A DNA stretch of 32,905 nt, from NCBI GenBank assembly GCA_964467615.1, contig CAYXRK010000032.1:1-32905 (forward strand), written 5' to 3'. Positions 4,549 to 32,905 of the stretch are shown one piece after another; the first letter of the stretch is position 1; each line of letters starts with the position of its first letter. The position numbers were made by a program, and so were the translations under genes. This DNA is from an uncultured Nitrospirales bacterium. Its GTDB lineage: Bacteria > Hydrogenedentota > Hydrogenedentia > Hydrogenedentales > GCA-2746185. The notes under the pieces were generated by a model. The model saw nothing but the letters and a program-made list of their open reading frames with translations, was not told where the DNA came from and searched no databases.

Positions 4549-5060
4549 TTGCGGCCGTCCTTATGGTAGTCCGGCTCGCGGCGTCCGATGTGGTATGCGG
4601 CGACGAGGCCGGCGAGCAACAACAATGACGCGAGTTCGATGATGAGAATGTAAGGCCCGAACAAGGCGAGGCTGACTTCCTTGGGCTCGACGATGCGGTC
4701 GCCGGGGAGCCAGGAGCCGTCGCCTCGAGCGATGAGGACCATCTGGGCAAAGAGGACACCGGCAAGGAGTCCTGGGCCGATCCACGCGCGCCAACTCGCC
4801 AGCGCGCGTTCGTCGAGCGCGGCCTGACCTCCTTGGTTGAGCATCATGATGACGAAGATGAACAAGACCATGATCGCGCCCGCGTAGACGATGGTTTGTA
4901 GCGCGGCGACATAGGGAGCGCCTAGAACGAAAAAAATGACGGAACCGGCGAGCAGTGACGTGATCATGTACAGCAGCGAATGTACCGCGTTAGTGCGCGT
5001 GATTGCGAGCAAGGTCGAGATCACCGCAACGCCGGAGGCTATGTAGAAGACGGAGTTCAT
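4545..5060 (-). CDS. nuoJ: NADH-quinone oxidoreductase subunit J
   Basis: 171-aa membrane protein ([20 protein letters not shown]...) in the operon position expected for nuoJ, overlapping the nuoI stop. Confidence 0.9.
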
Positions 5061-5572
5061 GGTAAGAGGCTATGAACATCGACCGGCGGCGACTCGTTTT
5101 CGGCCTCGCCTTTGCCTTTGTCTTTTATCGCAAGCCCGGCGACGTTGTAAAAGCTGTATCCCGGATACTTGCCGACGCCGCTGATGAGCAGATCCTCTTT
5201 CTCGTAAACCAAGTTCTGGCGGTTGTACTCGCACATCTCGAAATCTGGCGTAAGTTGGATTGCGTACGTCGGGCAAGCCTCCTCGCAGTAGCCGCAAAAG
5301 ATGCAGCGCGAAAAGTTGATGCGGAAGAATTCCGGATAGCGGCGGCCGTAGGGGTCCTCGGTGGCCTGGAGCGCGATGCAATCCACCGGACAGGCCACGG
5401 CGCAAAGATAACAGCCAACGCAGCGCTCGCCGCCATCGGGGTCGCGGGTGAGGACGATTCGCCCGCGCCAGCGCGGCGCGAGCCTGGACCGCTCTTCGGG
5501 ATACTGCACGGTGACGCGCTTGGCGAAGGTGTGCTTGAAGACGACCCACATGCTGCGAAGTTGACTGAACAT
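5057..5572 (-). CDS. nuoI: NADH-quinone oxidoreductase subunit I, a 2x[4Fe-4S] ferredoxin-type subunit
   Basis: 171 aa with two CxxCxxCxxxCP motifs ([12 protein letters not shown] and [12 protein letters not shown]). Confidence 0.93.
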
Positions 5573-29050: not shown

Positions 29051-30667
29051 CTACTCCGCGAGCACCGGCAACACGATCGCGCTCGGTCGCAACGGCTCGT
29101 GATACACCCGGTTCAGCGCGACTCGCGCTTCCATCGCCGGCACGCCGGTGTTCGGGTTCACGTCGAACCGCGGATAATTGCTCGATGTCACGTGTACCGC
29201 GATGCGATGGCCCTTCTCGAACGTAATCGCCGTGCTCCACAAATCGATTGTCAACAACTCCGGCTCGTTCGGCCGCATCATCATCACGTCCTGCGGGTTT
29301 CGTCCATGCCGGAAACGCGCGCGCATCGGGTTGTCCAACACGAGCGCCTCGTAACCGTCGGGATACACGTCCACCAGCTTGACCATGAAGTCCGTGTCCG
29401 GACCGTCCGTCGATGCCCACAATTCCATCGTGACCTTGCCGGCGATCGCAACGTCCTCCTCAATCGGCGCGGTCTGAAATCGCAGATAGTCGTCGCGTTC
29501 CCCGACCGCCCGCTGGTCCATCGGCCCGAGTTTGATCGTCAAATTCGATCCGCCAATGGTCGGCACCGGGACGTGCGGATCGAACTTATATTCCGTAAAT
29601 GGCTTCGCCGCCGCCGATGCTTCCAGCGGGTCCTTTTGAAGCGCCTTCTTGTCCGTGAGATACAGCCTCGTCGCGGTGGTCTGCGGCGGCCACGACTCCG
29701 CTTGCCGCCAGTCGTTCTTCGGCGACAACGCCCCCTTCCGCGCCGACGCCATCATGTAGTACGACACCGCCGGTTCGTCCATGATTCCGTTCTTCTCGGC
29801 CTTGAGCCAATACGCGAACCACCGCATTTCGTTGTCGCCCCGGCCGCCGTTCACGTATTCGAGATCGCCCGAAAGCTGGCCGTGTCCGAACGGCCCCATC
29901 AGCAGTTTCTGATTGCCCCGCGCGCCGCGTTTGCCCTTCTCCTGAAGATATACGAAGTTATCGATGTTCCCTTCCAGGAAAATGTCATACCATCCGCCCA
30001 CGTTGTACATCGGAATATCGACCTCCTGGATGTGATGAACAAGGTCTGTCTCCATCCACCCGTCATCCACCACCGGCCTTGCGAGCAACCCCGCCACCTG
30101 CGAATCCGCGCCCTGTGCCTTCATCCACCCCGAGATCATTGACCACTTGAACGCCCCGTTCGTAAACCACATCTGATCGAGTGAAGACTGCGGCGCGACG
30201 ACCACATACGCCGCCGCGAGACCGGGTGGGTCCGAGGCCGCAGCCATGTTCGCCGTGATCCCCATCGCCGAGCCGCCCGTAATGCCAATCTTTCCGTTGC
30301 AAAACGATTGTCCCTTGATCCAAGCGATCGTGTCATAGCCGTCCTCGCGGTCTGTCGCGAACGGTTCATACGACCCCTCCGATGCAAACCGACCGCGGCA
30401 GTCCTGCGCGACGTACGCGTAGCCCGCATCCGTGTACTTTTTCGATCCCTTCGAGAAACCCTCTTTGTTATAGGGCGTGCGAACCACAATCGTTGGAAAC
30501 GGCCCCGCCCCCTCCGGCAGATTCACTGCCGTCGCCAGCTTCACGCCGTCGCGCATCGGCGCCATGTAGGACGACGTCTCCGCGCTTTGGACAACGTCGT
30601 CCGCCGCCCAAACAAACGGCGCGCACGCAACCACGAAAAGCAGCAATACGTTCAACGATTTCTTCAT
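29051..30667 (-). CDS. CocE/NonD-family hydrolase (S15 X-Pro dipeptidyl-peptidase-like alpha/beta hydrolase), secreted
   Basis: ATG at 30667 (MKKSLNVLLLFVVACAPFVWA signal peptide) with SD GGAGAGGAGAGGG 2 nt upstream, giving 538 aa. …GITGGSAMGITANMAA… is the nucleophile-elbow GxSxG context. There is a C-terminal beta-sandwich domain. The track start is a TTG 6 codons upstream. Confidence 0.8.
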   Translation of the reverse strand: MKKSLNVLLLFVVACAPFVWAADDVVQSAETSSYMAPMRDGVKLATAVNLPEGAGPFPTIVVRTPYNKEGFSKGSKKYTDAGYAYVAQDCRGRFASEGSYEPFATDREDGYDTIAWIKGQSFCNGKIGITGGSAMGITANMAAASDPPGLAAAYVVVAPQSSLDQMWFTNGAFKWSMISGWMKAQGADSQVAGLLARPVVDDGWMETDLVHHIQEVDIPMYNVGGWYDIFLEGNIDNFVYLQEKGKRGARGNQKLLMGPFGHGQLSGDLEYVNGGRGDNEMRWFAYWLKAEKNGIMDEPAVSYYMMASARKGALSPKNDWRQAESWPPQTTATRLYLTDKKALQKDPLEASAAAKPFTEYKFDPHVPVPTIGGSNLTIKLGPMDQRAVGERDDYLRFQTAPIEEDVAIAGKVTMELWASTDGPDTDFMVKLVDVYPDGYEALVLDNPMRARFRHGRNPQDVMMMRPNEPELLTIDLWSTAITFEKGHRIAVHVTSSNYPRFDVNPNTGVPAMEARVALNRVYHEPLRPSAIVLPVLAE

Positions 30668-30893
30668 CGCCCTCTCCTCTCCCAAATCAACCTCGACGCG
30701 AATTCGAAGAATACGTCACGCATCCCACTTTCGCAATCGCACCGGCAATTCGTGACCGAGTTGTAAATTCCTTTCATGGCACTTCCGACTACCGAGAGTA
30801 GTCAACTGACTCCGCTTCCCTCGCTGGCGATACCCCGCTTCGTCGTTTCGCGCCCCATTTTTAGTCGCTCCACTCTGGAACGAAATTAATCTC

Positions 30894-30922
30894 TTGACAA
30901 CCGTTTCAAATGTCGCTATATT
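30894..30922 (+). promoter_or_regulatory. Near-consensus sigma70 promoter, TTGACA-N17-TATATT
   Basis: TTGACA at 30894-30899, a 17-nt spacer, TATATT at 30917-30922. It sits in a locally AT-rich stretch 40 nt upstream of the ATG at 30962 and predicts a TSS near 30929-30931. Confidence 0.6.
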
Positions 30923-30961
30923 CTTGTCGTTCCACCATATATAGGGAGTCATCTGGGGAAG

Positions 30962-31567
30962 ATGGCTGTATCTAGTGTAGAGGACTGGGGGGATCGGTTC
31001 CTTGCCGCCCTATTCGCGTCTAAAGCGCGAATCGCGGTTCTGCGCGTATTTCTAGTCGATCCGCGCCGCGCCTACTACCAGCGCCAAATCGCCGCCGCAG
31101 CCGGTCTCGCGCTGCGCGGCGTCCAGGCCGAACTCGAACGGCTCACCCAAAGCGGCCTCCTCTACCGCCGTACCGAGGGCAAGCGCGCCTACTACCGCGT
31201 CGACCTGAACTTCTCCTACTTCCATGAGTTACGTAGTATGGTATTAAAGTCCGGCACTGACTACGACCGCCTGCGCGGCTACCTCGCCATGGTCGAGACG
31301 ATCCATCTCGCGTTTCTCCACGAGCCGACCAACCGCGTCCTCGCCGTCACGCGCGACGCCAACCGCACCACGCTCTCCACGCCCAAGACCTACATCCTCC
31401 ACGTCATGACCGGCGAGTCGTTCGCCGATGCACTGCACCATCGCGATTCCGAGCTCACGCCCTTCCTCGCCGAAGGCGTCGACTTGCTCGGCCGCCGCGA
31501 CGACATTATCTGGCATCGCATTCAACGCTGCGGCTACGACGTTCCGCGCGGAAAAGGAGTCCCTTGA
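30962..31567 (+). CDS. Winged-helix (MarR/ArsR/TrmB-like) domain protein with a C-terminal domain of unknown function
   Basis: 201 aa. The N-terminal …ARIAVLRVFLVDPRRAYYQRQIAAAAGLALRGVQAELERLTQSGLLYRRTEGKRAYYRV… is a typical wHTH recognition-helix/wing pattern. The C-terminal about 110 aa are unassigned. Its stop overlaps the next ATG (TGATG). Confidence 0.5.
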   Translation: MAVSSVEDWGDRFLAALFASKARIAVLRVFLVDPRRAYYQRQIAAAAGLALRGVQAELERLTQSGLLYRRTEGKRAYYRVDLNFSYFHELRSMVLKSGTDYDRLRGYLAMVETIHLAFLHEPTNRVLAVTRDANRTTLSTPKTYILHVMTGESFADALHHRDSELTPFLAEGVDLLGRRDDIIWHRIQRCGYDVPRGKGVP

Positions 31568-32905
31568 TGGAGTCACAGAAGTTGACGAAGCTATGCGAGT
31601 CGTGGTGGGGCCGTCTCGCCCACGCGAACCGCGCGGACCTCGAAACCTGCGCCACACAGTTCCTCGATCTCCTCGGCTGGCCCGCCGCCGCGAAGTCCGA
31701 ATCCACGAACGACGGCGTGCCCACGGGCCCCATCTGCTTCACGCTCAAAGCCGGCGGCGACGACACCATCGTCGCATGGTTCGCCATGCCCGGCGCGCTC
31801 GACCCGCCCACCTCGCTCGTCGAACACGGTCTCGACTTCTGCGAACTGCCCCGCGTCCTCGCCACGGCCTCGCGACGCCGCCGCGCGCCTTACGCGTTCG
31901 TCACCGACCTCTCGCGCTCCTACTTCTACGACGTTGAAACTGACGAATTGCTGCTCTACGCAGACACCCCGGACCTCTTCAACCGCGATCTTGCCCCCGT
32001 CCTCTCGCGCTCGAGCATCGAGCGCGGCGATCTCGAAGACCTCCGCCGTCCCCCGCGCAGCGCCCTCGCCCGCCAACTCCGCGACTGGTGTACCGCGTGG
32101 CGCGAGGTGCTCGTCCGCGAGCAAGGCGTCCGCGAAGAGACCGCCGAGGCCGCCCTCGACCGCCTCCTCCTGCTCCGCTTCCTCTTCGATCACGACATCC
32201 TCAAGCGCTCCGATTGGCGCCTCCGTCAACGGTTCGACGACCTCCTCACCCGCGCCTTCGAGACCTCCACCCCCAACTGCGGCGGCGCGCTCACCTCTCT
32301 CTTCCACGACCTCTGGTTCGATTGGAAAGCCGAACTCTTCGCGCCCATGCCCGAACTCGACCGCGCGCTCGAGGACGATGCCATCGCCCGCCCGATGCTC
32401 CGCGAGTTTGCGCTCATGTCCCGCGCGAAATTCACCATCGGCGCAATCCTCGAATCCTTCAACTACGGCGACGCCATGGAAAAAGCCCGCGTCCGCCTCG
32501 TCCCCGAACCCGACGAATCCCGCTCCCGCTTCCTCGGCAAACAATCCCTCGCCACCATCGACGCCGCCCGCGTCACCATCGACCTCGCCGAAGAAGGTTA
32601 CCGCGCGATCTTCCATTGGTTCGACGAACTCGTCAACGCGTACGAGCGTCTCGGCGTGCAGTTCGACGCCCAGACCTACGACCCCCAACGCACCCCCAGC
32701 GACCTCGATCTCTTCCAATGGGGCGAACTCGACGCCACCCGCCCCACCGCCCTCTGCGACAAATTCCAACACGCCGTCGAAAAAGGCCTAGTCATCTACT
32801 ACAGCACCCCCCGCCAATTTCGCACCGGCCGCCTCATGCTCTACCTCCCCCTCGTCGCCTCCTACCGCGACTCCCGCCACCGCTTCGACCAATTCCCCCA
32901 AATCG
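31567..32905 (+). CDS. MmeI-family (Type IIL restriction-modification)-like protein, N-terminal nuclease-like and helical domains. It is partial and continues beyond the window end.
   Basis: The ATG at 31567 is preceded by a perfect AAGGAG (31554-31559, 7-nt spacer) and is open for 446 codons to the window end with no stop, so the stop-requiring ORF track misses it. It aligns by eye with MmeI. …PYAFVTDLSRSYFYDV… matches MmeI …RYVLVCDFQRFRLTDL…. The helical-domain motif …ALDRLLLLRFLFDHDIL… at aa 198-214 matches MmeI LVRLLFCLFAEDTTIF at aa 190-205, at the same distance from the N-terminus. The methyltransferase motifs would lie beyond the window. Confidence 0.5.
   Translation, partial: MESQKLTKLCESWWGRLAHANRADLETCATQFLDLLGWPAAAKSESTNDGVPTGPICFTLKAGGDDTIVAWFAMPGALDPPTSLVEHGLDFCELPRVLATASRRRRAPYAFVTDLSRSYFYDVETDELLLYADTPDLFNRDLAPVLSRSSIERGDLEDLRRPPRSALARQLRDWCTAWREVLVREQGVREETAEAALDRLLLLRFLFDHDILKRSDWRLRQRFDDLLTRAFETSTPNCGGALTSLFHDLWFDWKAELFAPMPELDRALEDDAIARPMLREFALMSRAKFTIGAILESFNYGDAMEKARVRLVPEPDESRSRFLGKQSLATIDAARVTIDLAEEGYRAIFHWFDELVNAYERLGVQFDAQTYDPQRTPSDLDLFQWGELDATRPTALCDKFQHAVEKGLVIYYSTPRQFRTGRLMLYLPLVASYRDSRHRFDQFPQI

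Follow-up and report, generated by a model that had tools for sequence, protein, structure and literature searches.

The contig CAYXRK010000032.1, titled as an uncultured Nitrospirales bacterium and placed by GTDB in the phylum Hydrogenedentota, was analysed over its whole length of 32,905 nucleotides (the window), and its right-hand end carries the two-gene module, ORF1-ORF2, that is considered here. A sequence-only reading had taken this pair for a winged helix-turn-helix (wHTH) protein and an MmeI-like enzyme, together a candidate non-canonical defence or restriction-modification (RM) system. We find that the two genes form a conserved, translationally coupled pair, and that ORF2, to judge from its sequence, goes back to the N-terminal half of a Type IIG/IIL enzyme whose catalytic motifs have been lost.

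The module begins with a sigma-70-type promoter on the forward strand (30894-30922), where the -35 box TTGACA (30894-30899) and the -10 box TATATT (30917-30922), separated by a 17-nt spacer, agree with the consensus at 11 of 12 positions. This is the one such site between 30500 and 31700, compared with a mean of 0.3 in shuffled sequences. The short 5' leader (30923-30961) contains two purine-rich ribosome-binding-site stretches, AGGGAG (30943-30948) and GGGGAAG (30955-30961), ahead of the ORF1 ATG; a search of 30600-31100 against Rfam gave no family match, and an RNA element in the leader is thus not supported. ORF1 (30962-31567, forward strand) starts with ATG and encodes 201 aa. At its end lies a coupling signal (31554-31569, same strand), in which the Shine-Dalgarno (SD) sequence AAGGAG (31554-31559) sits in the final codons of ORF1 (K-G-V-P), 7 nt ahead of the ORF2 ATG (31567-31569), and the A of the ORF1 TGA (31565-31567) doubles as the first base of that ATG (position 31567), giving a TGATG overlap. 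ORF2 then runs forward from 31567 to the window end at 32905 as 446 open codons with no stop, and was missing from the ORF list because its frame runs off the window.

The sequence-only reading had described the near-consensus promoter, the coupled pair, the strong SD and the large unlisted frame, and all of these stand, as does its remark on host-like codon usage: the GC content at third codon positions (GC3) is 0.77 in ORF1 and 0.85 in ORF2, against 0.72-0.83 in eight other genes of the window. The AT-rich island in which it placed the promoter is indeed low in GC (49.6% against 61% for the window), but is merely the 276-bp divergent intergenic region (30686-30961) between ORF1 and the oppositely oriented gene of an S15-family peptidase. 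Two frames overlapping ORF2, one of 393 aa on the reverse strand (31591-32772) and one of 285 aa on the forward strand (31934-32791), are shadows of its high GC3 and not genes.

The length of ORF2 can be estimated from its relatives. A search of 5.8 billion proteins returned 186 homologues, all of them unnamed or 'hypothetical', with Hydrogenedentes/Hydrogenedentota metagenome-assembled genomes as the named sources; the best 120 of the 186 are 456-496 aa long, bar three of 393-418 aa that cover just 81-87% of the query. The closest relative, P0001, is 93% identical and 480 aa long, and it is encoded on contig L001 right after an ORF1 of 94% identity. Its stop falls 34 codons past the point that matches the window end, and from P0001 we estimate a full length of about 480 aa for the window ORF2, which would leave no room for a methyltransferase (MTase) core or a target recognition domain (TRD). 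The full-length MmeI-like (Type IIL) enzyme that had been expected beyond the window is ruled out by the homologue lengths and by the stop in P0001. On L001 the next genes after ORF2 are a hicA/hicB toxin-antitoxin (TA) pair on the opposite strand (4883-5349), and such a pair probably lies just outside this window too, going by the gene order of L001.

Within ORF2 we distinguish three parts, all on the forward strand. Residues 1-134 (31567-31968) form an alpha/beta domain of PD-(D/E)xK-like (HSDR_N/MmeI_N) type without the D...ExK residues, as assigned from model secondary structure, hhalign and alignment columns; residues 135-300 (31969-32466) form a multi-helical spacer, homologous to the helical connector of Type IIG/IIL enzymes, with the motif LDRLLLLRFLFDHD at residues 197-210; and residues 301-446 of about 480 (32467-32905) belong to a C-terminal domain that the window end cuts. 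The AlphaFold model of P0001 is confident (pLDDT 89.7, pTM 0.87). Database models are silent on the protein. No Pfam, NCBIfam, PADLOC or PHROG model matches ORF2, and even at E values up to 1 no Pfam model matches the window ORF2 or any of 42 relatives, so that the search with the MmeI_N, hel, Mtase, TRD and C models, proposed as a check on the MmeI-like assignment, came back empty for all of these proteins. PADLOC applied to ORF2 and nine relatives gave nothing significant, the best values being chance-level matches to unrelated models (E 0.0096 and 0.05), and a profile search of PDB sequences with the ORF2 family gave only chance matches, with no MmeI among them.

The relationship to RM enzymes emerges from profile comparison. 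We built a profile (A1) from 42 ORF2 family members and searched it against 1.84 billion representative proteins. Besides the family and further proteins of about 430-470 aa beyond it, it matches the N-termini of proteins of 950-1218 aa at E values of 7e-8 to 4e-4, over profile positions 28-294. These long proteins carry Eco57I, N6_Mtase, MmeI_Mtase, TaqI_C and HSDR_N domains, with MmeI_N below threshold, and are thus Type IIG RM enzymes. Aligned by hhalign with the Type IIG N-termini, A1 scores a probability of 98.7% (E 3.5e-16, 272 columns), and the helical motif LDRLLLLRFLFDHD of the ORF2 family is paired with ILDRLVIIRYADD of the Type IIG enzymes. By these alignments, the N-terminal ~290 aa of ORF2 therefore share a remote but genuine homology with the part of Type IIG/IIL enzymes that comprises the nuclease and the helical spacer. 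The positional likeness to the MmeI N-terminus claimed earlier survives in this remote form, not as a match to any MmeI model. For comparison with MmeI we used published domain boundaries (PMC4833311). 5HR4 has a disordered nuclease domain (residues 1-155; PMC4833311), and PglX lacks such a domain (PMC11341690); the approximately 250 residues aligned with these two (255 for 5HR4) thus correspond to the helical spacer and the start of the MTase fold.

We compared the 42 ORF2 family members with eight Type IIG relatives, in which the D...ExK residues lie in the sequence VDVgLE...vfvEaKRFG; this aligns to YxLRxG...VAAxFVMPG in the ORF2 family, where columns 56-62 and 67-78 contain 0% Asp or Glu and no Lys or Arg stands at the ExK position. 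The MTase motifs DPACGSG and NPPY are both present in all eight Type IIG relatives. Among 120 ORF2 family proteins, none has an NPPY-like sequence ([NDS]PP[YFW]) and none has DPACGSG; the position of motif I (DPACGSGSF) is occupied by IDLxxEGYRAIF. The C-terminal domain of ORF2 is collinear with the start of a gamma-class MTase at the positions of motifs X, I and II (hhalign and MAFFT), and the family ends past the helix after MTase strand beta-2, ahead of motif IV. Taken alone, this domain shows a weak profile similarity to MTases in the same register (P=0.0055, 86 columns), which is suggestive of a vestigial MTase stub. The motifs I and IV that were to be sought downstream are thus absent, and with them a functional MTase domain and a TRD. 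Failure of the HMM searches, want of an MTase or TRD and a stop shortly beyond the window were the outcomes that the sequence-only reading had itself named as refuting it, and all three apply here, the stop by way of P0001. About 20 divergent clusters of 430-480-aa proteins are truncated at this point too and have lost these motifs as well, so the truncated architecture appears to be old. In other words, ORF2 on this sequence evidence keeps a nuclease-like domain, a helical spacer and a possible MTase stub, and has lost the nuclease residues, the S-adenosylmethionine (SAM) motif, NPPY and the whole TRD, which most likely makes it a non-catalytic 'pseudo-enzyme'.

ORF1 belongs to a family of about 191 homologues of roughly 200 aa, with the same source pattern as those of ORF2. 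Its N-terminal half is a predicted ArsR/SmtB-type wHTH domain (about residues 5-110, 30974-31291), and its residues 15-119 match positions 8-112 of the 201 in the PADLOC profile PDC-M05A (E 1.2e-17). The remainder (residues 111-201, 31292-31564) is a conserved alpha/beta domain with the motif GVDLLGRRDDxIWxRI, in which we found no nucleotidyltransferase signature (G[SG]...DxD). The most conserved part of the protein is the C-terminal motif GVDLLGRRDDxIWxRIxxxG...KGKGVP. The final KGKGVP (31547-31567 in the window) is encoded by the purine-rich stretch that doubles as the ORF2 SD, and the protein conservation at this end may partly mirror a constraint at the nucleotide level. The median isoelectric point is 8.0 for ORF1, a basic protein, and 5.7 for ORF2, which is acidic in all three of its domains. 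Such charges would suit an ORF1 that contacts DNA and an ORF2 that modulates without binding DNA.

To examine the conservation of the pair, we scanned a single genome for each GTDB species. ORF2 relatives occur in at least 92 species, and 80 loci were kept, each from a different assembly; the pair occurs once per assembly, and ORF2 identity falls to 33%, in Ca. Hydrogenedens terephthalaticus. ORF1 lies directly upstream in 62 of the 79 loci in which gene calls place ORF2 in its cluster, and by tblastn in about 90% of the loci with enough upstream DNA, which bears out the idea that the wHTH partner is conserved among homologues. The distance from the ORF1 stop to the ORF2 start ranges from -4 to +2 in 68 of the 72 loci measured, with 31 at -4, 18 at -1 and 19 at 0 to +2. 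Pairwise identities of the two proteins are correlated over 67 loci (Mantel r 0.67, a value that 0 of 999 permutations reach), and the codon changes between the window and L001 are predominantly synonymous (32 synonymous to 12 non-synonymous in ORF1, 76 to 29 in ORF2).

The promoter, too, is found in related loci: 46 of 67 have a site that agrees with at least 10 of 12 consensus positions ahead of their ORF1 homologue. In 22 loci the promoter spacer contains a GACTAC box (TTGACW-N2-5-GACTAC), and in its full form the element reads TTGACA-N2-5-GACTAC-N5-8-TATACT and lies about 100-115 nt ahead of the ATG (e.g. L032, L025, L031 and L064). Of the occurrences of TTGACW-N2-5-GACTAC in 818 kb, searched on both strands, 22 precede ORF1 and a single one lies elsewhere, and on this distribution the box is a plausible operator for ORF1. 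The 5' leader is about 70-100 nt long in most relatives, as against about 32 nt in the window.

Almost all of the 80 loci are titled Hydrogenedentota, with a few Nitrospir* or 'uncultured' and one Bathyarchaeia. The 'Candidatus Bathyarchaeia archaeon' and 'uncultured Nitrospirales/Nitrospiraceae' titles (L011 on DATKVG010000106.1, L004, L005, L006, L009 and others) stand on contigs that carry the pair, which suggests mislabelled bins or bin contamination. Clustering the neighbours over 83 loci revealed no recurrent defence or mobile genes, and ORF1 is the sole recurrent partner of ORF2, housekeeping genes aside. The neighbourhood is otherwise variable; its commonest members, amtB and glnK, are encoded on the opposite strand and occur in 13 loci, which form one subclade. 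No relatives were found among IMG/VR contigs, PLSDB plasmids or GenBank phages. A mobile or defence-island setting is rejected on these two grounds. The two-gene operon, host-like in its composition, is chromosomal, probably vertically inherited and characteristic of the phylum Hydrogenedentota.

In the window, the peptidase gene upstream of ORF1 (29051-30685, reverse strand) encodes an S15-family X-Pro dipeptidyl-peptidase/CocE-like protein with Peptidase_S15 and PepX_C domains. It is not at this position in L001, where a gene for an SDR protein and one of 183 aa directly flank ORF1; in two distant loci, L075 and L076, a homologous peptidase does precede ORF1.

With moderate confidence, we read the module as a chromosomal operon for an autoregulated wHTH DNA-binder and a catalytically dead, RM-derived partner. 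According to this reading, both genes would be driven by the strong promoter, and the overlapping stop and start codons would hold the amounts of the two proteins coupled. The basic ORF1 would bind DNA and probably regulate its own promoter, and the acidic ORF2 would use its highly conserved C-terminal domain to bind ORF1, which it would modulate as a co-regulator or sensor, neither cutting nor methylating DNA. The interaction of the two proteins, the autoregulation and the absence of enzymatic activity are what we infer from the combined evidence.

Several observations weigh against this interpretation. The GACTAC box is missing from the window promoter itself, and from that of L001. The window ORF1 has Ala at three near-invariant positions of the HTH (E44, T47 and R56; residues 44-56, 31091-31129) that are at least 90% conserved elsewhere, and the L001 ORF1 has the same substitutions; a recognition-helix change that tracks loss of the box was considered, and as it concerns one lineage only (the window and L001) it is uninformative as covariation. 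An adjacent ORF1 is absent in L009, in L048 and in a clade comprising L051, L054, L055 and L065. Upstream DNA is too short to judge in two further members of this clade, L063 and L069 (just 48 and about 400 bases), and there is little or none in L081. The distant ORF2 relatives of 429-459 aa are mostly solitary and lie among housekeeping genes. Together with the ORF1-less clade they indicate that ORF2 can work without a neighbouring ORF1. Finally, the nuclease-like domain has invariant D90, D114, R117 and D122, which could form a non-canonical active site, and the invariant D339, E343, G344, Y345 and R346 might yet serve to bind a ligand of nucleotide-like kind.

The ORF1-less clade has an N-terminus of its own (MQNSASEI...) and a cinA-like gene downstream in five of seven loci (L051, L063, L065, L069 and L081). 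Two members of the wider ORF2 superfamily, of 442 and 429 aa, are solitary and have queH (epoxyqueuosine reductase) directly upstream on the same strand (L089 4107-4685, L090 4222-4797), with mnmA beside one of them. For another distant relative, P0271 (442 aa), the gene upstream is ORF1-like (28% identity, E 7e-28).

A wider formulation, which we put forward only tentatively, concerns the family as a whole. ORF2 may belong to an ancient, undescribed superfamily of 'fossil' Type IIG enzymes of about 430-480 aa, all without the catalytic motifs and truncated at one and the same point within the MTase domain, from which the Hydrogenedentota would have exapted one member as the obligate partner of a wHTH protein, its remodelled cofactor pocket or nuclease-like fold serving as a sensor that controls gene expression or chromosome biology and not defence.

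We also considered that ORF2 might be a new enzyme or ligand-binder, using either the half-Rossmann stub (IDLxxEGYRAIF) or a relocated active site in a housekeeping role on nucleic acids, with ORF1 merely its regulator. This we regard as unlikely. Strongly conserved polar residues (ILESFNYGxxxEKxRVRxVP, DEGYRAIF and DLFxWSE) and the compact C-terminal domain of a confident model would suit such a function, as would the clades without ORF1 and the solitary distant relatives among tRNA-modification and housekeeping genes. The queH association, however, amounts to two of the four loci examined, the similarity of the C-terminal domain to the MTase fold is weak when taken alone, and no known catalytic motif is left. 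That the two genes are tightly coupled and their products co-evolve suggests that the proteins are partners and that ORF1 is more than a simple regulator.

A module of non-canonical defence, or one resembling TA systems, is to our mind improbable. In it the wHTH protein would be an antitoxin or sensor that regulates itself (cf. AbiEi and PDC-M05A-type proteins), and ORF2 an effector that attacks nucleic acids by means of a non-canonical active site. In its favour, overlapping genes behind a strong promoter with a possible operator are typical of TA and C-protein/restriction endonuclease (REase) operons, ORF2 has a restriction-enzyme origin and an invariant D90, D114, R117 and D122, a HicAB pair follows in L001 and the ORF1 wHTH half matches PDC-M05A, which is paired with a HEPN protein in a candidate system of TA-like kind (PMC12988326). 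Against it, that match is limited to the generic wHTH half and the partner here is not HEPN, PADLOC and PHROG have no model for ORF2, the canonical D...ExK, SAM motif and NPPY are missing, the pair is single-copy and co-evolving at 33-60% identity across the phylum, its neighbours are housekeeping genes (such as amtB-glnK, cinA and a peptidase) with no recurrent defence genes, and searches of phage, plasmid and viral collections gave no relatives. Both of these alternatives are made less likely by the missing motifs together with the phylum-wide, single-copy and housekeeping-embedded distribution. RM and defence genes are patchy in their distribution and associated with islands, the reverse of a single-copy gene pair that hardly occurs outside one phylum, and the proposal that the module is a new defence or RM system is not supported on present evidence.

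The reading of the module as a DNA-binder with a dead RM-derived partner has implications for how such genes are interpreted. If it is correct, ORF2 represents a clear domestication of a selfish or defensive enzyme in which all catalytic motifs have been lost, yet purifying selection has kept the single-copy gene throughout an uncultured phylum, in tight coupling with that of a DNA-binding protein. The catalogue of RM-derived pseudo-enzymes would gain a family unseen by Pfam, NCBIfam and PADLOC, and the module would provide a testable pair of regulator and co-factor with a recognisable promoter box. For annotation, the case is a warning that N-terminal similarity alone is insufficient to call a protein 'MmeI-like RM' or 'defence'.

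Among known systems, the C-protein circuits of PvuII, AhdI and Esp1396I offer an analogy, in that a small DNA-binding gene lies upstream of and overlaps a gene of restriction-enzyme type and a box is embedded in the promoter. C proteins have an Xre-type HTH and a length of about 80-100 aa, whereas ORF1 is an ArsR-type wHTH with an extra domain and its partner is catalytically degenerate; no gene for a cognate MTase was seen among the neighbours examined. PDC-M05, a candidate system enriched in Archaea that pairs the wHTH-nucleotidyltransferase M05A with the HEPN protein M05B (PMC12988326), resembles the module in the size of ORF1 (about 200 aa), in its N-terminal wHTH and in the TA-like two-gene layout. 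It differs in that the ORF1 match stops at the wHTH, with no nucleotidyltransferase signature, and in that ORF2 is not a HEPN protein. The BREX protein PglX/BrxX, of about 1200 aa, has an active SAM-binding MTase (GxG and NPPY) and a TRD, in contrast to ORF2 with its missing MTase motifs, and works with BrxA, BrxB, BrxC, PglZ and BrxL; the gene tables that we read show no BREX Pfam families beside ORF2 homologues.

The closest comparison is with the Type IIG/IIL enzymes themselves (MmeI, BpuSI, DrdV), in which a single chain of about 900-1200 aa combines an HSDR_N-type nuclease, a helical spacer, an Eco57I-type gamma-class N6-adenine MTase and a TaqI_C TRD, followed in MmeI by a C-terminal bundle. 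In contrast to these enzymes, ORF2 is about 480 aa long, has no conserved D...ExK, a replaced DPACGSG and no NPPY, TRD or C-terminal bundle, is matched by no Pfam MmeI, Eco57I or N6_Mtase model, and is paired with a wHTH protein in a phylum-restricted, single-copy setting. What ORF2 shares with them is its N-terminus, a homologous nuclease-fold domain followed by a homologous helical spacer.

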